Origin: a virus
Taxonomy: Duplodnaviria; Caudoviricetes
Length of the DNA: 58,074 bases
Reading direction: 5' to 3' (one strand)
IMG/VR virus record: IMGVR_UViG_3300027734_000080
Location: 1 to 58,074 of that record
Shown here: positions 3,585 to 45,810 of the stretch, piece after piece
Layout: every line of letters starts with the position of its first letter
Numbering within the stretch: the stretch's first letter is position 1
The notes under the pieces: model-generated
The model's input: the letters and a program-made list of their open reading frames with translations, nothing else
The model's database searches: none
What the model was told of the DNA's origin: nothing
Position numbers and translations under genes: made by a program

Positions 3585-4238
3585 ATGCCGTTTTATCCAA
3601 CAGCGTTGCTGGTTATGGAGCATAATGTTACAGGAATGAAGTATTTCTGCAAGACAACACAACTCCATTGCTTGTCTTCGTATAGTGGTAGTGGTGTTTA
3701 TTGGAAAAAACATTTAAAAAAGCACGGTAAAGATATTTTGATTGGGTTGCTTGGTGTTTATTATGATGAAGATCGGTGTCGTAATGCGGCGCTTGAATTT
3801 TCAAAACAAAACAACATTGTTGAGTCGGAGGGGTGGGCAAATTTAATTTATGAAAATGGTTTTGATGGAGCGCCGCCCAAGGAAATGCATCCTATGTTTG
3901 GAAAGCCAAGTCCATGCAGGGGTCAAAAAAGACCTTGGGTTGGAAAATCCGGATCAGATAATCCCATGTGGGGAAAGCCCAGCCCAATGCGTGGTGTAGC
4001 AAGACCAAAAGGAAAAGACAGTCCACTGTTTGGTAGAAAACGCCCAGAGGGTGGAGGCAAAAAACCTCGCGCTGTTGTATGTATTACAGATGGAAAAGAA
4101 TTTGCATCTGTATCAGAGGCGGCAAAATATGTTGGTGGATCGGGAAGCCCAATTAGTCAATGTTGTTTGGGTAAATCTAAAACAGCTTATAGTAAAACTT
4201 GGAAATATAAGGAGAACTTATGCCATACGGAACGGTAA
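3585..4238 (+). CDS. Free-standing homing endonuclease (Seg/GIY-YIG-like, with NUMOD3-like repeats and a NUMOD1/HTH end)
   Basis: TGMKYFCKT...YSGSGVYW N-terminus, (H/N)PM(F/W)GK repeats, C-terminal FASVSEAAK..ISQCCLGK..TWKY; AT-richer than flanks. Confidence 0.75.
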   Translation: MPFYPTALLVMEHNVTGMKYFCKTTQLHCLSSYSGSGVYWKKHLKKHGKDILIGLLGVYYDEDRCRNAALEFSKQNNIVESEGWANLIYENGFDGAPPKEMHPMFGKPSPCRGQKRPWVGKSGSDNPMWGKPSPMRGVARPKGKDSPLFGRKRPEGGGKKPRAVVCITDGKEFASVSEAAKYVGGSGSPISQCCLGKSKTAYSKTWKYKENLCHTER

Positions 4239-5221
4239 ATGCTGACAGCTTAGTCAGTTCAGATGGTGGGGTAATCAGCCCCAACATTAATTCTTTGCGA
4301 AACCGCATTATCAATGGTGCGATGGTGATTGACCAGCGTAATGCTGGGGCGAGTGTTGCAACTACGACAACAGGGACTCCAACTTACACTCTTGACAGAT
4401 TCGCTTACCAATCTAGCCAAGCGTCAAAGTACACGGTTCAACAAAATGCTGGATCAGTTACCCCGCCAGCAGGATTCAAAAACTATTTAGGTGTTACTTC
4501 TACATCTGCATATTCAGTTGCCGCAGGAGATTATTTTTTATTGCGTCAACCTATTGAAGGTTTTAATACAGCCGATTTAGGTTTTGGCGCGGCTGGCGCA
4601 TCTACGGTCACAATTAGTTTTTGGGTTCGCAGTTCATTGACAGGTACGTTTGGCGGTTCATTAGAAAATGGTGCTGGAGATAGAAGTTATCCATTTAGCT
4701 ACACCATTTCAGCGGCAAACACATGGGAACAAAAATCAATAACTATTGCAGGTGATACATCAGGCACATGGGTGGGAGCAACAAACGCTGTTGGTATGTT
4801 AGTTGTTTTCAGTTTAGGAATGGGGTCTACCTACAGCGGAACTGCTGGTGCGTGGGCAACAGGAAACTTTTTAGCACCAACAGGCGCAACCAGCGTAGTC
4901 GGCACAAACGGAGCCACGTTCTACATCACAGGCGTACAGCTAGAAAAAGGCAGCGTAGCCACATCGTTTGACTACCGTCCTTATGGTACTGAGTTGATTT
5001 TGTGCGAACGGTATTACGACACTGGTAACAACACACTTGAAATCATTACTCCAGCGGGGCCTTTTACTATGCGTTTTGCCACAATAATGAGGGCAACCCC
5101 CACTCTTTCGACCAGTCAAAATAGTGGTTCTATATTTGACGTTAGTGTGCAAAAAGGGTCTTTTAGGGCGCAATCTACCGCCATCGCCGTACTTAACTAC
5201 ACAGCTTCAGCAGAACTATAA
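4220..5221 (+). CDS. Tail fibre / receptor-binding protein with carbohydrate-binding-like domain
   Basis: RNRIINGAMVIDQR...ITGVQLEKGSVATSF...ELILCERYY motif set typical of phage fibres. Confidence 0.8.
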   Translation: MPYGTVNADSLVSSDGGVISPNINSLRNRIINGAMVIDQRNAGASVATTTTGTPTYTLDRFAYQSSQASKYTVQQNAGSVTPPAGFKNYLGVTSTSAYSVAAGDYFLLRQPIEGFNTADLGFGAAGASTVTISFWVRSSLTGTFGGSLENGAGDRSYPFSYTISAANTWEQKSITIAGDTSGTWVGATNAVGMLVVFSLGMGSTYSGTAGAWATGNFLAPTGATSVVGTNGATFYITGVQLEKGSVATSFDYRPYGTELILCERYYDTGNNTLEIITPAGPFTMRFATIMRATPTLSTSQNSGSIFDVSVQKGSFRAQSTAIAVLNYTASAEL

Positions 5222-23913: not shown

Positions 23914-24114
23914 ATGACACTGACAGACTACTTTAAAGAAGAGCCACGAGGCGCAAAGAGTGAGATGGCAACCTACTTGGGCATATCCCTGACATGGTTC
24001 AGCCTATTGATCAACGGCAAGCGTAAGGCGTCCCCTAAGCTGGCTTTGGCAATAGAAGAGGCTACCCAAGGGCTGGTCAAGAAGGCTGACTTGCGGCCTG
24101 ATCTTTTTTCGTGA
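23914..24114 (+). CDS. Cro/YdaS-like HTH regulator
   Basis: MATYLGISLTWFSLLINGKR...IEEATQGLV...LRPDLF. Confidence 0.85.
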   Translation: MTLTDYFKEEPRGAKSEMATYLGISLTWFSLLINGKRKASPKLALAIEEATQGLVKKADLRPDLFS

Positions 24115-24128
24115 TAATATGACCCACA

Positions 24129-24235
24129 TGACGCTTGGCGGCGTTTTGCAGTAGGGTTACACATGCTGTCTGCTGGTACTGCACCAGTCCGCCAACATCC
24201 GAAAGGGTGAGACAGCAGGTGTAGCCCTTTTTTTT
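24129..24235 (+). ncRNA. C4/CI-like antisense RNA with upstream target sites, copy 1
   Basis: Long stem 24153-24171/24210-24228 closing two hairpins; loop TACTGCA and linker CCGCCAA are exact complements of upstream TGCAGTA and TTGGCGG; ends in a T run. Confidence 0.7.
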
Positions 24236-24244
24236 GGGGTTTTT

Positions 24245-24910
24245 ATGCATTACTACAAAAGGAACCTTGGCGACTATGCCAAGAAAGCAGGTCGACTGAC
24301 CATGCTCCAGCACGGAGCGTACACGCTTCTTATCGACTCGTGCTATGACCGTGAAGTTTTCCCCACGCTAGAGCAAGCAATTGAATGGACTTGGGCCTCA
24401 ACAGAGGCTGAGGTTGAGGCTGTTAAGTTTGTCCTTAGCAGGTTCTTTGTGCTCGATAAAGAGGGCAGATATGTTCAAGACAGGATACTTGAAGAGCTGC
24501 TCCAGTACCACGCCAAGGCCGACACTAACAAACGAATCGCCAACGAACGTGAAGCGAAGCGTAAAGAAAAGGGAACGAAGCGTACACGAGTCGTGAACGA
24601 ACCGCCACCTAACCAAGAACCAAGAACCATAAACCAAGAACCATCTTCCGCAAAGAAGCCAGCCAAGAAGTGTCCCAAAGACTTTGAGGTTACTGACGAC
24701 ATGAAGACTTGGGTGAAGACTGAATGCCCATTGGTTGATCATGCCGAGCAAACAAAGGTGTTCCGAGATTATGAATTTACCGCGGCTAAGAGTGACTGGG
24801 TTGGTACGTGGCGCAATTGGATGCGTAAAGCCAACCAATTTGCTGCTGAAAAGCAGACTACTGACCGCTACCCCAAAACCTCTTCTGGCATTATTGCGGG
24901 GGCCATATGA
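24245..24910 (+). CDS. Replication protein, DUF1376/YdaU-like
   Basis: MHYYKRNLGDY...HGAYTLLID, NQEP repeat linker, DW..TWRNW C-terminus. Confidence 0.85.
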   Translation: MHYYKRNLGDYAKKAGRLTMLQHGAYTLLIDSCYDREVFPTLEQAIEWTWASTEAEVEAVKFVLSRFFVLDKEGRYVQDRILEELLQYHAKADTNKRIANEREAKRKEKGTKRTRVVNEPPPNQEPRTINQEPSSAKKPAKKCPKDFEVTDDMKTWVKTECPLVDHAEQTKVFRDYEFTAAKSDWVGTWRNWMRKANQFAAEKQTTDRYPKTSSGIIAGAI

Positions 24911-38379: not shown

Positions 38380-38835
38380 ATGGCCAAGACAAAAGAAGTA
38401 ACCACTAACTTAGGTGGCAGACCCACAAAGTACGACCCATCATTCTGCGACATAGCTATAGAGCTAGGTAAGCAGGGTAAGAGCTTCCACTACATAGCGG
38501 GAAGCTTAGGTGTTTCTTATCGCACTCTATGCACTTGGAGGACTGAGCACGAGGAGTTTCTTCACGCCTTAGAGTTAGCGAACACTCACTCACAAATGTG
38601 GTGGGAAGATCAAGGCCAAGCCTACCTCGTGGGGACTAAAGATAGCGGCAACATCAACGCATCACTGTATGGCAGATCAATGGCGGCACGCTTCCCTGAT
38701 AGCTGGAGAGAGAACGTCAAGCTCAGTGGGGATAAGGAGAACCCTGTAGAGGTGAAGGTAGAGGCTCAAGGGCTAATCTCCGCGCTGATAGACAACATCG
38801 AACTCACTCGACAGAATGCAGGAACAACTGATTGA
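38380..38835 (+). CDS. terS: Terminase small subunit
   Basis: GRPTKY, HTH, W...H.EF, WWE, WRE...LSGDKENP; overlaps terL. Confidence 0.85.
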   Translation: MAKTKEVTTNLGGRPTKYDPSFCDIAIELGKQGKSFHYIAGSLGVSYRTLCTWRTEHEEFLHALELANTHSQMWWEDQGQAYLVGTKDSGNINASLYGRSMAARFPDSWRENVKLSGDKENPVEVKVEAQGLISALIDNIELTRQNAGTTD

Positions 38836-40240
38836 GACGCTGAAAGACCCCAAGTTCCAAAGTGCGTTTGCCACGCTTAGTATAGAAGAGCAAGTAGCAA
38901 GCGCATGGAGAATGAGGTGGTTGACTCAGGCTCACCAGCATCAGATCCTCCCCCATGGGGATTGGTGGTCGATTTTCTTATGTCTTGCGGGCCGCGGATC
39001 GGGCAAGACTCGTATGGCCTCGGAGCAAATTGGATGGTGGGCATGGAAACAACCCAACACCCGCTGGCTCGTAGCCGCCCCCACAAGCTCAGACGTAAGG
39101 GCGACTGCCTATGAAGGCGACTCAGGGTTGCTCAATGTCATTCCCAAAGAGCTTATAGCAGACTACAACAAGAGCTACCACGAGATCAAACTTGTGAACG
39201 GCTCACTCATTAAGGGCATCCCAGCATCCGAGCCTGAGCGCTTCCGCGGTGGACAATGGCACGGTGCTTGGTGTGATGAGCTTGCCGCTTGGGACTACCT
39301 GCAAGAGGCTTGGGATCAGATTCAATTCTCCGTGCGCTTGGGTAAGAAGACACGCATACTGTGCACAACCACGCCTCGACCCAAAGACCTGATCGTAGAC
39401 CTCGTGGGCAGGGATGGAGATGATGTCTGCGTTACTACAGCCTCGACCTACACCAACCTATCCAACCTTGCCCCAAGCTTTCAGAAGCAGATCCTCCAAT
39501 ACGAAGGTACAAAGCTGGGTCGGCAGGAGATCCACGCCGAGATCATCGACCCTGAAGAGTCGGGCATCATCAAGCGGGACATGATTAAGCTATGGCCAAC
39601 CTCTAGGGAGTTCCCCAAGTTTGAGTACATCTTGCAGAGCTACGACGTGGCCACTAGCGAGAAGACGGTGAACGACCCTACCGCGGCATCCACATGGGGC
39701 GTATTCAAGCCTTTAGACGGCCCTATGAGCGTTTTATTGATCGACTGCTGGCAGGACAGGCTACAGTACCCCGATCTGCGCCCAAAGGTCTTAGATGAGT
39801 ACGAGGTGGTGTATGGAGAGGGACGAGAAAAGAAACGGGTGGACTTGATCTTGATCGAGGACAAGTCAGCAGGTATCAGCCTGATCCAAGACTTGCAGAG
39901 AGCACACTTGCCTGTAAGGGCGTATAACCCTGGCCGTGCTGACAAGATGCAGCGCTTGAACGTCATATCCTCGCTGTTCGCTAGAGGCAGAGTCTGGATG
40001 CCTGAGAGCAGCCAGCGCCCACGGTACGTTAAGGACTGGGTAGAACCCCTACTGAGCCAACTCTGTGCGTTTCCTGATACAACCCATGATGATTTCGTCG
40101 ATTCGACATCCCAGGCCCTGCGCTTCCTGCGTGATGCTGGATGGATTGACATTGATGGCCCAGCCCCAGAGGCTTATGACGAAGACGATTACTATGACAG
40201 CGGAATGGCTAAACGGAAAGAGAATCCCTATGCAGTATGA
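38816..40240 (+). CDS. terL: Terminase large subunit
   Basis: AGRGSGKT, AWCDELAAW, TTTP, SYDVA, IEDK, HDDFVDS. Confidence 0.95.
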   Translation: MQEQLIETLKDPKFQSAFATLSIEEQVASAWRMRWLTQAHQHQILPHGDWWSIFLCLAGRGSGKTRMASEQIGWWAWKQPNTRWLVAAPTSSDVRATAYEGDSGLLNVIPKELIADYNKSYHEIKLVNGSLIKGIPASEPERFRGGQWHGAWCDELAAWDYLQEAWDQIQFSVRLGKKTRILCTTTPRPKDLIVDLVGRDGDDVCVTTASTYTNLSNLAPSFQKQILQYEGTKLGRQEIHAEIIDPEESGIIKRDMIKLWPTSREFPKFEYILQSYDVATSEKTVNDPTAASTWGVFKPLDGPMSVLLIDCWQDRLQYPDLRPKVLDEYEVVYGEGREKKRVDLILIEDKSAGISLIQDLQRAHLPVRAYNPGRADKMQRLNVISSLFARGRVWMPESSQRPRYVKDWVEPLLSQLCAFPDTTHDDFVDSTSQALRFLRDAGWIDIDGPAPEAYDEDDYYDSGMAKRKENPYAV

Positions 40241-40415
40241 TGAGATAGTGACCACTCACTTATGTGATGGCAGGTTTGAGATAGTGGCTGACCACATAGC
40301 ATTGAGAGAGCTGCTCAACGATCCTCTCAACGGTCAAGAAGCTATTGAGAGACTATGCGAGAGCCTGTCAACATGGATAGATAACCAATTGGACATTGAT
40401 AACCTAATAGGTTAA
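40230..40415 (+). CDS. Hypothetical protein
   Basis: MQYDEIVTTH..., overlaps the terL stop. Confidence 0.5.
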   Translation: MQYDEIVTTHLCDGRFEIVADHIALRELLNDPLNGQEAIERLCESLSTWIDNQLDIDNLIG

Positions 40416-40445
40416 TTGACACCCTGTTGTTTGCCAATGTACAAT
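40416..40445 (+). promoter_or_regulatory. Strong sigma70-type promoter
   Basis: TTGACA-18-TACAAT. Confidence 0.75.
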
Positions 40446-40449
40446 GGCG

Positions 40450-40542
40450 TTGTTGTCGTCGTAGTCAACAAGATGAAGCCATTTACTCATGCCTCGCCCC
40501 GTTATGGGGAACTACGACGGGGCAGTAGTAAGTGGCTTTTTT
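40450..40542 (+). ncRNA. C4/CI-like antisense RNA with upstream target hairpin, copy 2
   Basis: Hairpin loop CGTCGTAGT (40457-40465) is the exact complement of ACTACGACG (40511-40519) inside a long stem ending in a T run. Confidence 0.65.
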
Positions 40543-40800
40543 GTTACCGAGACAGCCGTCAGGGCGCGTCAGCTAAATGGTCTGCATGGACTGAACCCAA
40601 TAAACACCGCACTCGTTACACCCGCGAGCAAAAGGCGACCAGCGTTGATTGACCGACTGGTAAAGCATACGGTAACTCAGGTGGAAGAAACTAGGCCATA
40701 TGTATAAGCGAATCAATCCCTCATGGGCACTTGGGATATACGAGCAACATATCGTACATTCGGAGCGGGCAGGATCAATATCCACCCTAGCCAAACCTTT
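40543..40800 (+). ncRNA. Candidate structured RNA of unknown class
   Basis: No convincing ORF; several consecutive hairpins. Confidence 0.4.
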
Positions 40801-40840: not shown

Positions 40841-41020
40841 ATGAAAAACTTTATTGAACTAAATGTTGCTGACGAATTTATCCTTCGTTTCTACAAAGAG
40901 CCAATTGGTAACGACCAGAACGTGTATGTGTTGCGAGTGACGGAAGAGATCATCAAGCTGATTCAAGATGACTTGGATGCTTGTGTGAAGCGCCGAGCTG
41001 GCGAACTACAAACACACTGA
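40841..41020 (+). CDS. Hypothetical protein (59 aa)
   Basis: Not in the track; MKNFIELNVADEF...; possible promoter TAGCCA-17-TATGAT upstream. Confidence 0.55.
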   Translation: MKNFIELNVADEFILRFYKEPIGNDQNVYVLRVTEEIIKLIQDDLDACVKRRAGELQTH

Positions 41021-41028
41021 GGTTAACC

Positions 41029-43305
41029 ATGGCCGATAAAGGCATCCCATTTGATGTTCCGACCCGCGCAAACCTTTTGCAGGGCCAGAGACTTATAGAT
41101 GAGCAACTTCGTGAGAAGGCTGCTAGGGATGCCAAGCTATCGCCGCTAGACAAAGCCTATGCTGCTTTAGAGGCTGCTAGAACCTTTGGCTCTGGCATAC
41201 TGGCTACTGTCGGATCGCTTCCTACTAGAGCCATTAAAGGCGAAGACGCCGCCCAAGAATACATTAACCAGCGTATGTACATCCCTACTACTGAGAAAGG
41301 CATGGACTATGTTGGTAATGTGGGTAACTTCTTAGAGCAACTAGAAACCAAATACAAGCTGCCTCCTGTTCTGCCTGAAGCCGTTGCTTTGCAGAACGTA
41401 ATGGGGCCAGCCGCCAAACAAGCTACTAAGCAAGCAGCTAAGGCTGCAAAGCCTGTGGTTGGCCAAGCCCTTGAGGACTATATGTTTAAGCAGGGATTGG
41501 CGCTTCCCGCAACCGTATACCACGGCTCACCCCACAAGTTTGACAAATTTGATGCAAGCAAGATCGGCACAGGAGAAGGCTCACAGGCTTATGGGCATGG
41601 TTTGTATTTGGCCGAATCTCCAGAGGTGGCAAGGGGTTACAAAGACAAATTGCAAGGCGGTGTCCTTGGGGAAAAAACAACTAGTTTTTTAGAATCTAAG
41701 TTGTCAAAAAGCAATCCAGAATTATTTACTACTGCAATTAAACCGCAAGTTTTAGACACCATATCTGCAAACGCAGGTAAAAGTCCGGCAGAGATGTCAT
41801 CTGCGTTAAATAGGCTTGCTGATAGCTTTGAAAGACAGGGCTTTGATTGGCAGCTTGCAGCAGCGCCAAATGTGCGAGAACTAGCCAAGAACAAACAACT
41901 GCTCTCAGATATATCTCAAAATGTGGCTGGCTCCCTTTACAAAGTAGATTTACCTGACGAGCAGATAGCAAAGATGCTGGATTGGGACAAGCCGCTGAGT
42001 CAGCAGGCGCCGGCTCTTGAGGCTTTGAGTAAAAACAAAGATTTTGCTCAATATGTTGAGAGAATTATGGAGCGCCCTTTGTCTGAATTAGACGGCAAAA
42101 CGCTTCAACGAATGGCAATAGGTTATGCGGCAGACAAAGGGTTAGGCGGCGCATCTGGCGCGGCTGACGTACTTCGCCAAGCGGGCATCCCCGGCATCCG
42201 TTACCTAGACGGCGGCTCTCGCGGCACTGGCGCAGGTACTAGCAACTTTGTAGTATTCCCCGGCGAAGAAGATGCCTTGACCATTCTTGAGCGCAATCAA
42301 CAGCCTATAAAGAAAGAATCTACACGCATTGCTGATAACCCCGACACCATGATGATGGAAGTAGAAGATCAGAAGTTTGGTATAGGAGGAATGGCTGGCA
42401 AAGCAGTTAAGTCTGCCGTAGCCACGAGAGAGCTAGAGAAACAAGCTGTACTACGTGCTGAAGCAGCCGCTAAGAGCGCTGCCAAGCAAGCCCTCATGCC
42501 CCAATACAACGAAGCAGTAAAGGGCATGACAAAGAAGCAAGACCCTCTATCGTTTGAAGAGTGGAAAGCCATTAACTACCCAGAAGGAACCCAAGGGTTG
42601 CAAAATGCCCCTCAAAAGCAAACCTTTAAGTATCCACAAGAATCTTTACCCGCAGAAGAGCGTGATGAAAACCTGCAAAAGTTTCTCGGTAACAGCAGGA
42701 TTAGGGATCGTCTTTACCATGCAACACCCAAGAATTTTTCCGAATTTAAGCCAGGTGGCGATGACCCAACAATCAGTGGCCCAGCAATTTGGCTGACGCC
42801 CAATGCCACAAAACAACCTGCCGCTCACAATATAAGCAGTCGCTCACAAGAGTTTAGAGAAGGAACCAATGTTATGCCTGTGTATGCTCAGGCTAGGTCT
42901 CCATTGTTGCTTGACGACAAGTTGGCAATTGAATGGGCAAGAGAGGTCTACGCTGACGGAAGCAGTGAATTTCCTGACTTGCTCTCCCCAAAAACAATTG
43001 AAGAGTTGAAAAAGGGTGGTTATGACAGCATTATTCATGCAGATCCCTACGGCAACCGCGGTGGTGAGCAAGAAATTATCATGTTTGAGCCAAACAAAAT
43101 CAAGTCAGCCATCGGCAATCGTGGCACTTATGACATCAACGAAGCCGACATAAACAAAGCTGTTGGTGGTGCTGTATTTAACACAGACCCCGACATGAGT
43201 GATGGTGGGCAGATTATCCAAGGCCCTCCATTCAAACATGGTGGCGATGTTAACCTAGACGCAATGTATATGGCCGTGAACGACGCGAAGTTTAGAAGGA
43301 AGTAA
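41029..43305 (+). CDS. Tandem ADP-ribosyltransferase-like (ART-PolyVal type) protein
   Basis: VYHGS..F..F...IGTGEG.QAYGHGLY; second LYHAT...VMPVY...GYDSII...EQEIIMFEPNKIKS. Confidence 0.7.
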   Translation: MADKGIPFDVPTRANLLQGQRLIDEQLREKAARDAKLSPLDKAYAALEAARTFGSGILATVGSLPTRAIKGEDAAQEYINQRMYIPTTEKGMDYVGNVGNFLEQLETKYKLPPVLPEAVALQNVMGPAAKQATKQAAKAAKPVVGQALEDYMFKQGLALPATVYHGSPHKFDKFDASKIGTGEGSQAYGHGLYLAESPEVARGYKDKLQGGVLGEKTTSFLESKLSKSNPELFTTAIKPQVLDTISANAGKSPAEMSSALNRLADSFERQGFDWQLAAAPNVRELAKNKQLLSDISQNVAGSLYKVDLPDEQIAKMLDWDKPLSQQAPALEALSKNKDFAQYVERIMERPLSELDGKTLQRMAIGYAADKGLGGASGAADVLRQAGIPGIRYLDGGSRGTGAGTSNFVVFPGEEDALTILERNQQPIKKESTRIADNPDTMMMEVEDQKFGIGGMAGKAVKSAVATRELEKQAVLRAEAAAKSAAKQALMPQYNEAVKGMTKKQDPLSFEEWKAINYPEGTQGLQNAPQKQTFKYPQESLPAEERDENLQKFLGNSRIRDRLYHATPKNFSEFKPGGDDPTISGPAIWLTPNATKQPAAHNISSRSQEFREGTNVMPVYAQARSPLLLDDKLAIEWAREVYADGSSEFPDLLSPKTIEELKKGGYDSIIHADPYGNRGGEQEIIMFEPNKIKSAIGNRGTYDINEADINKAVGGAVFNTDPDMSDGGQIIQGPPFKHGGDVNLDAMYMAVNDAKFRRK

Positions 43306-43308
43306 ATA

Positions 43309-45810
43309 ATGGCAACAGAATTCCCCATCGACCCAGAGTTTGGTCGAAATGAACCACCTGCACCTGAAGATCAAGGCATGGAGGTGGAGCTAGACCTAGA
43401 AGAATCCAGCATAGAAGAACTACCTGATGGCTCTGCTGTGGTCACTATGGATAACTTTAAAGGCCCTGATGAGGACGAAGACTTCTACTCAAACCTTGCT
43501 GAAGACATAGACCCTTGGGAGCTGGACAAGATCTCCCTGCGCTATCTTGGCTTAATCGACAAAGATAAAGAAGCCCGCTCACAGCGCGACAAGCAGTATG
43601 AAGAAGGCATCCGCCGCACAGGTATGGGGAATGATGCACCAGGCGGCGCTAACTTCATGGGCGCTTCTAAAGTAGTCCACCCCGTAATGGCTGAAGCCTG
43701 TGTGGACTTTGCTGCTCGCGCTATTAAAGAGCTGTTCCCACCAGATGGCCCAACCCGCACCAAGATTTTGGGTGACGTGGATAAAGAGAAGACTGAGGTT
43801 GCCGAGCGTAAGCGTGACTTCATGAACTGGCAACTTACCGAGCAGATTGAAGAGTTCCGTGATGAGCAAGAGCAGCTATTGACTCAACTCCCATTGGGCG
43901 GATCTCAATTCATGAAGATCTGGTATGACGAGAACAAGAAGCGTCCCTGCGCTGAGTTTGTTCCTATCGACAATATCTTGCTCCCATTCTCCGCCGCAAA
44001 CTTCTACACAGCCCAGCGCGTCACCGAGGTGATGGATATTACAGACTGGGAGTTAAAGCGCCGTATCAACTCAGGTCTATATCGTGATACCGATTACGTC
44101 CGTGCCACTATGGAGCCGGAACAAACCCGCGCCGAGAAAGCTACCGACAAGATTGAAGGTAAAAAGATTGACGAGAATGAAGACGGCGTAAGACGTATAT
44201 ACCATGTGTATACGTGGCTTGAGCTGGAAGATGACTCCTACACCAAGGGAGAGGCTGCGCCCTACATCTTGATGATTGACGACATTGAGAGCAAAGTCAT
44301 TGGCCTGTACCGCAACTGGGAAGATGGTGATGACACCATGTCCAAGCTGGATTGGCTGATTGAGTTCAAATTCATTCCATGGCGTGGAGCGTATGCTGTT
44401 GGATTGCCACACCTGATTGGAGGCTTGGCAGCAGCCCTCACAGGCTCTCTGAGGGCTTTATTAGACTCAGCCCATATCAACAACGCCCCAACCATGTTGA
44501 AGCTCAAAGGCGGCAAGATCAGCGGGCAGAGCCAACAAGTTGAGGTCACCCAAGTAGTGGAGATTGAGGGTGCGCCTGGCGTGGATGACGTTCGCAAGAT
44601 TGCCATGCCCCTGCCTTTTAATGCGCCTAGCCCTGTATTGTTCTCGCTGATGGGCTTCTTAGAGAAAGCCGCCAAGGGAGTTATTACTACCGCGGAAGAA
44701 AAGATTGCTGACGTAACCGCACAGGCTCCCGTTGGGACTACCCAAGCCCTGATTGAGCAGGGTGCTGCCGTGTTTGCTGCTATTCACGCCCGACTCCATG
44801 CAAGCCAAAGCCGTGTGCTTAAAGTTCTTGCTAGGCTGAACCGCTGGTACTTGGACGACATGCAAAAGGGTGACGTGGTTGAAGACCTAGAAATCACCCG
44901 TGAAGACTTCAAGCGCAACACAGACGTAGTTCCTGTGTCTGACCCCCACATCTTCTCTGAAACGCAGCGTATGGCCCAAATACAGGCCGTCATGCAGGTT
45001 ATGGAGAAGCACCCTGACCTGTTTAACCGCAAGTCTGTGATTGAGCGCTTCTTGAAGCAGATCAAGGTGCCAGGCGTCAATGAGTTGATGAAGGACGTTC
45101 CTGATCCTGAGAAGCGGGATTCTGCCAACGAGAACGTGGCTATGGCTATTGGACAGTCTGCCTTTGCTTATATGGAGCAAGACCACCTCGCCCACATCCA
45201 AAGTCACTTGGACTTCGCCAAAGACCCAATCCTTGGCGCAAACCCAATGATTGCTCCCGCATTCATACCCCATGTGATGGAGCACATCAAGCAGCACTTG
45301 ACCTTGTGGTATCTCAACCGCATGAATGGGTATGTGAACAAGTCCCTTGGCAAGCCTGTTACAGACTACGACGTGGAAGACGTTACCCCCAAGATTGACA
45401 AGCTGTTTGCTTTAGCTGGCCAGCACGTCAACCAAGACAGCGTACAGACATTCCAGCAAATCATGCCGATCATCCAACAGATGATGCAGCAGATGCAACA
45501 GTTCCAACCCAAGGCCCCAATGACTCCAGAGGCTCAAGTCCTTATGGATACCAGCATGGCGGAAACCCAGCGCCGCGCACAAAAGGATCAAGCGGATATC
45601 CAGCTCAATATGCAGAAGCATCAAGACGATATGGCGCTTGCCCAAGAAGAATTGCAACTCAAGATGGCTATTGCTCAAGGCGACAACGAAACCAAAGAGC
45701 GTATCGAATCTGCACGCTTGACCAGAGATGCCGTCAAGTTGCAAAACGAGCAGACCAAAACTGCACTTACTTTAACTAGCAAACAAGGAGGCCCATATGG
45801 CTACCAGTGA
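43309..45810 (+). CDS. Portal protein
   Basis: Large protein after terL; HPVMAEA, MNWQLTE, APVGTT, Gln-rich barrel tail. Confidence 0.85.
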   Translation: MATEFPIDPEFGRNEPPAPEDQGMEVELDLEESSIEELPDGSAVVTMDNFKGPDEDEDFYSNLAEDIDPWELDKISLRYLGLIDKDKEARSQRDKQYEEGIRRTGMGNDAPGGANFMGASKVVHPVMAEACVDFAARAIKELFPPDGPTRTKILGDVDKEKTEVAERKRDFMNWQLTEQIEEFRDEQEQLLTQLPLGGSQFMKIWYDENKKRPCAEFVPIDNILLPFSAANFYTAQRVTEVMDITDWELKRRINSGLYRDTDYVRATMEPEQTRAEKATDKIEGKKIDENEDGVRRIYHVYTWLELEDDSYTKGEAAPYILMIDDIESKVIGLYRNWEDGDDTMSKLDWLIEFKFIPWRGAYAVGLPHLIGGLAAALTGSLRALLDSAHINNAPTMLKLKGGKISGQSQQVEVTQVVEIEGAPGVDDVRKIAMPLPFNAPSPVLFSLMGFLEKAAKGVITTAEEKIADVTAQAPVGTTQALIEQGAAVFAAIHARLHASQSRVLKVLARLNRWYLDDMQKGDVVEDLEITREDFKRNTDVVPVSDPHIFSETQRMAQIQAVMQVMEKHPDLFNRKSVIERFLKQIKVPGVNELMKDVPDPEKRDSANENVAMAIGQSAFAYMEQDHLAHIQSHLDFAKDPILGANPMIAPAFIPHVMEHIKQHLTLWYLNRMNGYVNKSLGKPVTDYDVEDVTPKIDKLFALAGQHVNQDSVQTFQQIMPIIQQMMQQMQQFQPKAPMTPEAQVLMDTSMAETQRRAQKDQADIQLNMQKHQDDMALAQEELQLKMAIAQGDNETKERIESARLTRDAVKLQNEQTKTALTLTSKQGGPYGYQ

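Follow-up and report, generated by a model that had tools for sequence, protein, structure and literature searches.

The region from position 40416 to 40542 of the window, the whole stretch of 58,074 nt analysed here and a complete 58-kb phage record of IMG/VR, carries what sequence comparison identifies as a genuine small RNA element of a widespread freshwater-phage family. The anatomy of this element, its helices, the co-variation of its two complementary sites A and B, the lack of a third site from -500 to +1200 nt, the borders of the cassette that it heads and the spread of the family were all established by comparison among relatives. On balance, the element probably forms the section nearest the promoter in an RNA-only regulatory module akin to P1 C4 and P4 CI, in which address-specific attenuation or immunity would gate read-through. 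A preliminary description of the same DNA had proposed a near-consensus promoter, a loop hairpin, a 9-nt complement of the loop within a long stem and a closing U run between 40416 and 40542, and every one of these features was found in place (Table 1).

Table 1. Coordinates of the two small RNA elements, the large downstream RNA and the neighbouring features in the window
Feature	Position	Strand	Remarks
Promoter, sigma-70-type	40416-40445	+	-35 TTGACA 40416-40421, 18-nt spacer, -10 TACAAT 40440-40445; 11/12 consensus matches
Hairpin 1, 5'-terminal	40450-40471	+	TTGTTG 40450-40455 pairs with CAACAA 40466-40471
Conserved core stem GTTG/CAAC of hairpin 1	40452-40455/40466-40469	+	94.6% paired in 64 distinct sequences
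Site A	40457-40465	+	CGTCGTAGT; inside 10-nt loop of hairpin 1
Long stem	40475-40539	+	S1 40475-40487/40527-40539; S2 40490-40496/40518-40524
Apical hairpin of long stem	40497-40509	+
Site B	40511-40519	+	ACTACGACG; 3' bulge of long stem
U run, six T	40537-40542	+	closes long stem; intrinsic-terminator-like end
Upstream neighbour, terminase large-subunit gene	38816-40240		Pfam Terminase_6N/6C
Downstream neighbours			59-aa ORF, then ART-PolyVal protein and portal
Large pseudoknotted RNA, ~240 nt	40556-40790	+	starts CCGTCAGGGCG; 20-nt invariant block 40579-40598
Helices of large RNA	40608-10/40635-37; 40639-42/40657-60 crossing 40647-52/40713-18; 40669-73/40695-99; 40719-21/40725-27	+
3' motif of large RNA	40780-40790	+	ATCCACCCTAG
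Possible mini-ORF, 11 codons	40799-40834	+	TTG start; fixed distance after 3' motif; Shine-Dalgarno degenerate in this lineage
59-aa ORF, function unassigned	40841-41020	+	last part of recombining cassette; same ORF family downstream in at least 9 loci
Sister element	24113-24235	+	between YdaS/Cro-like gene 23914-24115 and DUF1376 gene 24245-24910
Sister -10-like GATAAT	24113-24118	+
Sister hairpin ACGC-UUGGCG-GCGU	24131-24144	+	site a 24135-24141; hexaloop UUGGCG 24135-24140
Sister site b	24147-24153	+	TGCAGTA; single strand just 5' of long stem
Sister long stem	24154-24171/24210-24227	+
Sister site b'	24177-24183	+	TACTGCA; inner hairpin loop
Sister site a'	24189-24195	+	CCGCCAA
Sister U run, eight T	24228-24235	+

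The 94-nt chain from 40452 to 40545 folds at -40 kcal/mol (z -5.3), a value reached by none of 200 shuffles, and the duplex between sites A and B amounts to -14.8 kcal/mol. A G+C-rich stem stands directly before the U run, as in intrinsic terminators, and the absence of the element from a simple terminator scan is explained by its loop, which is larger than the limits of that scan. The promoter-like sequence is not significant by scanning alone, given that two such sites were found in the window against 1.8 expected. No tRNA or tmRNA was found in the window. Contigs from RNA libraries (two runs) cover the region only from 40839 onward, the uncovered part being uninformative.

A coding reading of 40416-40707, where two ORFs had been predicted, was considered and rejected. 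The alignment to MW202484.1, the single related record among GenBank phages (76.5% identity), shows indels of 6, 3, 1, 1 and 5 nt and no codon-like pattern, and because such indels break the frame the ORFs drawn across the element are not credible. In MW202484.1 itself (L001), the CDS at 4024-4383 labelled as a hypothetical protein overlies both the small and the large RNA and is probably a mis-annotation.

Relatives were gathered from IMG/VR with a 20-mer lying just downstream of the element, which returned at least 117 stretches. Among the matches listed, the hairpin and the long stem precede this anchor in 71 loci (53 unique sequences with 29 distinct loops). All 53 of these unique sequences, among the matches listed, hold a cognate Watson-Crick run of 6-9 nt between loop and bulge (6 nt in one, 7 nt in 30, 8 nt in 16 and 9 nt in six), which is at least 7 nt long in 52 of them, and over the 71 loci listed the run always ends 21-28 nt 5' of the U run. 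Loops set against non-cognate bulges pair over a mean of 4.16 nt, with 27 of 812 combinations reaching 7 nt; the pairing of loop and bulge exceeds chance in this comparison. A reciprocal scan of IMG/VR with the core pattern added at least 113 further loci, 103 of them with the hairpin, and in this independent set all 103 hairpin loci among the matches listed have a partner of at least 7 nt at the fixed bulge position and bring further new addresses. Loop and target vary together around a fixed core, as had been anticipated, and at least 29 distinct addresses occur across the relatives.

A covariance model built from 52 unique sequences of the 40416 type found 83 matches with E<=1e-7 when run against 89 sources, the E-values being rough; together with the loci found by core pattern, these bear out the earlier suggestion that the element belongs to a family. 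The whole structure is 91.9% paired in the model alignment as compared with 78.2% in shuffles (0/500 as high). Compensatory changes were found in 16 of the 25 predicted pairs of the 40416 element, and changes on both sides affect 8/13 pairs of S1, 7/7 of S2 and 5/7 of the loop/bulge helix in the model alignment. The A:B helix is 73.6% paired there, a figure kept low by register slips in the alignment, so the alignment-free test of loop against bulge is the more trustworthy. Upstream, a -10-like hexamer ends 6-7 nt 5' of the GTTG stem in 134 of 148 unique contexts, compared with 2-31 in shifted control windows, and owing to this conserved -10 position hairpin 1 is predicted, rather than mapped, to form the 5' end of the transcript.

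These comparisons bear directly on another reading of the locus, in which the terminase operon simply ends at an intrinsic terminator and both the complementarity and the promoter-like site arose by chance. A stem with a U run does lie 3' of the terminase large-subunit gene, and the promoter scan is not significant alone; the co-variation seen in all 53 and all 103 relatives among the matches listed, the conserved position of the -10 hexamer and the occurrence of the module in quite different gene contexts nevertheless leave this reading very improbable, and the comparative data on sequence already refute it. The gene contexts also speak to the packaging role that had been proposed for the 40416 copy, for which nothing was found in support: the element heads a self-contained cassette that recombines as a block, and in many relatives the module lies 3' of a cro-like gene and 5' of a replication-initiator-like gene. 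A scan of bacterial and archaeal genomes with the 20-mer returned only two short MAG contigs, whose flanks are unlike the RNA.

Comparison of near-identical phages gives direct evidence that the address is the evolving part of the module, at least as read from sequence. Between the window and L053, L096 and L118, the 385-nt module differs at 6-7 positions while the flanking genes differ at 2-5 per 100 nt. Four of these 6-7 differences are compensatory: two loop changes (40460 C>A, 40463 A>G) have their counterparts in two bulge changes (40513 T>C, 40516 G>T). All four fall within the ~18 of 385 nt that make up A and B. Contigs from a single DNA metagenome run also carry several address alleles, with changes at exactly those A/B positions.

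The main rival to an address with a role in specificity is a purely internal one. Sites A and B may form a tertiary contact (a pseudoknot) of a stable small RNA or terminator, serving for example stability, a protein or RNase P, with the variation of the address being neutral compensatory drift. Both sites share one 92-nt transcript, no third site was found from -500 to +1200 nt in 53 loci, and ordinary stems of the element are likewise rich in compensatory change (S2, 7/7 pairs), all of which would suit such a contact. Drift of this kind would not lead one to expect the concentration of changes in A and B among near-identical phages, the presence of several alleles together in one sample, or the reappearance of this leader/inner-loop logic in P4 and in three further types of module, where different segments vary. 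We regard the internal contact as unlikely, though as a serious competitor of the address.

The search for a third cognate site covered -500 to +1200 nt in the 53 loci and found none enriched, the A- and B-like 7-mers numbering 6, 3, 3 and 1 against 4.8, 2.7, 1.7 and 0.5 expected. This result also bears on the idea of a classical trans-acting antisense RNA, the true target of which (a phage or host mRNA) would lie elsewhere, with site A serving as a decoy or maturation partner like a1b1 of P1. Downstream targets of this sort are indeed described for P1 and P4 in the account of PMC4825925, and the portal gene contains a second exact copy of ACTACGACG (45365-45373 of the window). A single such 9-mer is, however, close to the chance expectation for 58 kb when both strands are counted (estimate 0.4), and most near matches run antisense to the genes, in keeping with codon bias; with no cognate third site enriched around the 53 loci, an antisense RNA of the classical type appears rather improbable. 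As separate observations on the window, the portal-like ORF (43309-45810; PHROG 1216) and the ORF at 255-2756 are both exactly 833 aa long and share no DNA similarity, and direct repeats of 72-102 nt with ~85% identity occur at 28961-29062/30593-30694 and 29696-29764/30630-30700.

A second element of related design is located at 24129 (Table 1). The preliminary description held that the two copies share a core, and the covariance model, when built without the sister element, scores 24128-24235 at 20.1 bits (rough E 0.006), which is the top plus-strand match of the window besides 40450-40542 itself. On sequence, the kinship appears distant, weak but real. The relatives of the sister were collected with a 14-mer: 110 loci were inspected, 69 have the full element, and 43 of 44 unique sequences could be parsed. 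The hairpin ACGC-UUGGCG-GCGU and its partner CCGCCAA proved invariant in this family, and with them the pairing of the UUGGCG loop with CGCCAA that had been noted before; the variable address is a second pair, 24147-24153 with 24177-24183, which the preliminary description had missed. All 13 leader/loop combinations of this second pair, comprising 7 distinct loops, form 7 pairs when G-U is allowed, whereas non-cognate combinations form a mean of 5.16, with 32 of 142 reaching 7. The further claim that the pairing sequences of the two copies are unrelated was upheld, since the elements do not cross-pair (-5.3 and -4.8 kcal/mol, compared with -14.8 and -22.2 kcal/mol for the cognate duplexes).

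Neither copy falls into an Rfam family. No family of Rfam 15 matched anywhere in the window at gathering scores, and searches at E<=10 around the 40416 element (40300-40700), around the 24129 element (24000-24400) and over the large RNA gave chance-level matches only; among related loci, none was found in 14 at gathering scores and none relevant in 7 at E<=1. The C4 model (RF01695; gathering 45 bits) in particular had no match in the window at gathering, none at E<=10 in 40300-40700 or 24000-24400, and none in the same 14 and 7 related loci, and the isrK / P4 SeqA RNA model (RF01394) matched neither element at E<=10 and none of those related loci. The same search on P4, used as a positive control, recovered the CI RNA as C4 at 74.9 bits and the leader as isrK at 60.8 bits. 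The 240-nt downstream RNA had no match among all 4227 models of Rfam 15. Both the small RNA and the 240-nt RNA are thus outside Rfam, and a catalogue of 8,495 candidate viral RNAs (PMC10690425) may list them. A C4-type layout, with a long closing stem, inner hairpins and a single-stranded 3' junction holding the antisense segment, is present with one inner hairpin in the 40416 type and two in the 24129 type. Both types also have an upstream leader site that is complementary within the same transcript (a1b1 / seqA), and a downstream target (a2b2 / seqC) is absent for the 40416 type within +1200 nt.

The proposal that this is an undescribed regulatory system stands as far as Rfam membership is concerned and falls as to the principle, which by analogy of layout is already described in the P4 seqA/CI RNA and in P1 C4/a1b1. 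In P4, termination is Rho-dependent and the CI RNA is cut out by RNase P. The upstream hairpin loop of seqA/CI pairs with a single strand just 5' of the closing strand of the long stem, as in the 40416 element, and there are two pairing segments, as in the 24129 element. By our own reading of the alignments of the Rfam matches, the P4 leader offers GUGAGAA in its hairpin loop and then UUCACAGG, and the CI RNA has the complements of both, UUCUCAC at its junction and CCUGUGAA in a loop. One address of the 40416 family, GTGAGAA/TTCTCAC, equals this P4 core. PMC4825925 describes the CI RNA as bringing about premature termination through pairing with seqA upstream and seqC downstream. In P4 immunity and in the 40416 family alike, the RNAs come from the sense strand and belong to the leader of an operon for early functions or replication, and premature termination would be the outcome in the 40416 family as well. 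The 40416 element differs from P4 in the lack of an Rfam model match, in one pairing segment instead of two and in the lack of a downstream seqC-like site; furthermore, its long stem itself ends in a U run, whereas P4 has a separate terminator between the leader and CI.

C4 RNA is matured from a longer transcript by RNase P. In P1 it blocks the ribosome site of icd (a2b2), and P1 and P7, which differ in their C4 loops, are heteroimmune. The C4 and a1b1 of these phages resemble the 40416 family in that leader sites are complementary to small-RNA loops; they differ in that the family models are unmatched and no icd-like downstream target was found in the 40416 family. The c4 and c4-a1b1 motifs were both listed by Weinberg et al. 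(2010; PMC2864571). IsrK of the Gifsy-1 prophage, given in PMC4825925 as a structural homologue of the SeqA RNA, follows the same scheme as the one proposed here, in which transcripts from one promoter either terminate early or read through, and the short RNA acts in trans on its longer counterpart (PMC4825925); unlike in our proposal, IsrK activates translation of the long form according to the same source, and there is no sequence or model match. In IncI-alpha/IncB plasmids, a cis long-range pairing and the trans-acting Inc RNA compete for one hairpin loop, again as proposed here. The titles of Asano and Mizobuchi (1998) on ColIb-P9, cited in PMC10724649, name a UUGGCG loop as the place where a cis pseudoknot and an antisense RNA compete. 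The hexaloop of the 24129 element is identical to that of this control system, and leader peptides lie downstream in both. The plasmid antisense RNA, however, comes from the opposite strand, with rep translation and not termination as the output.

Directly behind the 40416 element lies a large RNA of ~240 nt, which is present in more than 110 viral contigs. Its nine helices have 95.9% of cells paired against 76.9% in shuffles (0/500 as high), its covariation score is 0.476 as compared with 0.134 in shuffles and at most 0.07 for slid partners, and both crossing helices are 100% paired. Among close relatives it shows 0-1 differences, whereas the flanking genes differ at 2-5 per 100 nt. The 3' motif ATCCACCCTTGG was found 180-260 nt after the anchor start in 113 of 117 loci among the matches listed, and a start codon follows this motif by 7-9 nt in 73 of 77 unique tails. 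Forty-eight of the 75 tails with a start codon open ORFs of at most 15 codons (typically five, e.g. MSKNS), and 23 are fused to a real gene. The 3' end of the large RNA, with its motif, Shine-Dalgarno sequence and start codon, resembles a portable translation-start module that opens either a mini-ORF or a downstream gene in frame.

The gene behind the large RNA varies. A 120-aa protein resembling the C-terminal part of replication initiators (PHROG 9474) is encoded immediately downstream in 38 loci among the matches listed, a major head protein follows in 11-14 of them, and in the window the large RNA precedes the mini-ORF and the 59-aa ORF, for which comparison with Pfam, PHROG and Atlas gave no lead. 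The promoter -10, the small RNA, the large RNA, the mini-ORF and the 59-aa ORF recombine as one block in the lineage of the window, from ~40433 to ~41000, with the downstream breakpoint lying near 41000 in L090 and L110. The 774-aa ORF that comes next (40981-43305) encodes an ART-PolyVal domain, an ADP-ribosyltransferase of polyvalent proteins (E 1.2e-21), and its real start is likely to be the ATG at 41029 behind GAGG rather than the TTG at 40981.

Judged by their distribution among contigs, the small and large RNAs are separable. Among the matches listed, the small RNA is followed by the large RNA in 45 of the 113 further loci, 58 have enough flank and no large RNA, and 10 are too short; given that 58 of 103 loci with enough flank have the small RNA alone, the gated cargo appears to vary. 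Several variants of the arrangement were also observed. In L067 (3385-3460), compared with L051, a 'mini' large RNA lacks the central ~208 nt and retains the 5' 45 nt, the 3' motif, the Shine-Dalgarno sequence and the AUG, with the same replication-like gene behind; this version may have arisen by deletion or may represent a short ancestor. Five loci (L009, L058, L062, L097 and L119) have an extra insert of ~110 nt between the small and the large RNA, with a tRNA-like T arm GGTTCGATTCC, despite which the Rfam search reported no tRNA in L009 and L058.

In some loci, the place of the 40416 type before the large RNA is taken by one of two other small RNAs, both promoter-proximal and terminator-ended. 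In type B RNAs (L015, L025, L029 and L109), 9-15 nt of the leader are complementary to an inner segment and co-vary with it (cognate mean 10.4 against 5.98). In type C RNAs (L004, L014, L099 and L102) a leader/inner complement can be seen by eye, and a generic test for it gave no separation between cognate (6.5) and non-cognate (6.2) combinations. A tentative generalization, which we consider possible and which remains the lesser chance, would unite these as a superfamily of RNA-only programmable immunity or attenuation modules in freshwater phages. It would comprise at least four architectures (the 40416 type, the 24129 type and two more) in which a leader pairs with inner loops of a terminator-ended small RNA, the addresses defining cross-immunity groups among co-occurring phages. 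Such modules would often gate a ~240-nt pseudoknotted RNA of a new class, the invariant core of which suggests a riboswitch or ribozyme. With its own start codon and mini-ORF of about five codons, this RNA would provide replication, capsid or accessory genes with a portable expression leader.

How the address might act can be sketched for the RNA-only module that we favour. Host RNA polymerase would start a few bases 5' of hairpin 1 and produce a transcript of ~92 nt ending at the long stem and U run, with the complementary sequence of A and B as the specificity address. The large RNA begins ~14 nt after the U run, which leaves no room for a promoter, so it would be made only by read-through and termination at 40537-40542 would be the control point; stopping or reading through at this place would set the expression of the 240-nt leader RNA and of the genes that it leads. 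While the chain is still growing, A and B would pair in cis before the 3' strand of the stem exists and so hinder the terminator, whereas a ready-made small RNA of the same address would bind site A of new transcripts in trans, block the cis pairing and enforce termination. The outcome would be address-specific negative feedback, or immunity, between related phages. We infer this switch action, and with it the transcript ends, the trans action, the direction of the effect and any processing, from the anatomy and its conservation.

Folding is consistent with such a sequence of events. When it extends only to site B (40452-40520), the chain folds best as the A:B helix, and at full length it folds into the terminator; likewise, the best fold of 24131-24195 holds both a:a' and b:b' and the full-length sister chain gives the terminator. 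These nascent folds have unremarkable energies (z -1.86 and -0.89). Site b of the 24129 type directly adjoins the long stem, with no linker between the two, and on geometric reasoning cis pairing and the terminator stem would therefore be mutually exclusive. In the 40416 type, S1 (13 bp beside the U run) is free of A:B and a 9-nt linker could permit a pseudoknot, so that in this model termination could proceed despite cis pairing; strong steric grounds exist for the 24129 type only.

To our knowledge, RNA immunity factors of the C4/CI kind come from a handful of enterobacterial phages and satellites. While immunity of this kind is known, what is new here is that its logic recurs on hundreds of contigs of uncultured freshwater phages, with several architectures that escape current RNA family models. 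The 240-nt RNA that often accompanies them ranks with the best-conserved sequence of these genomes. If the address does set specificity, the modules would constitute a natural set of orthogonal RNA-RNA regulators, and would mark superinfection-immunity groups in natural phage populations.
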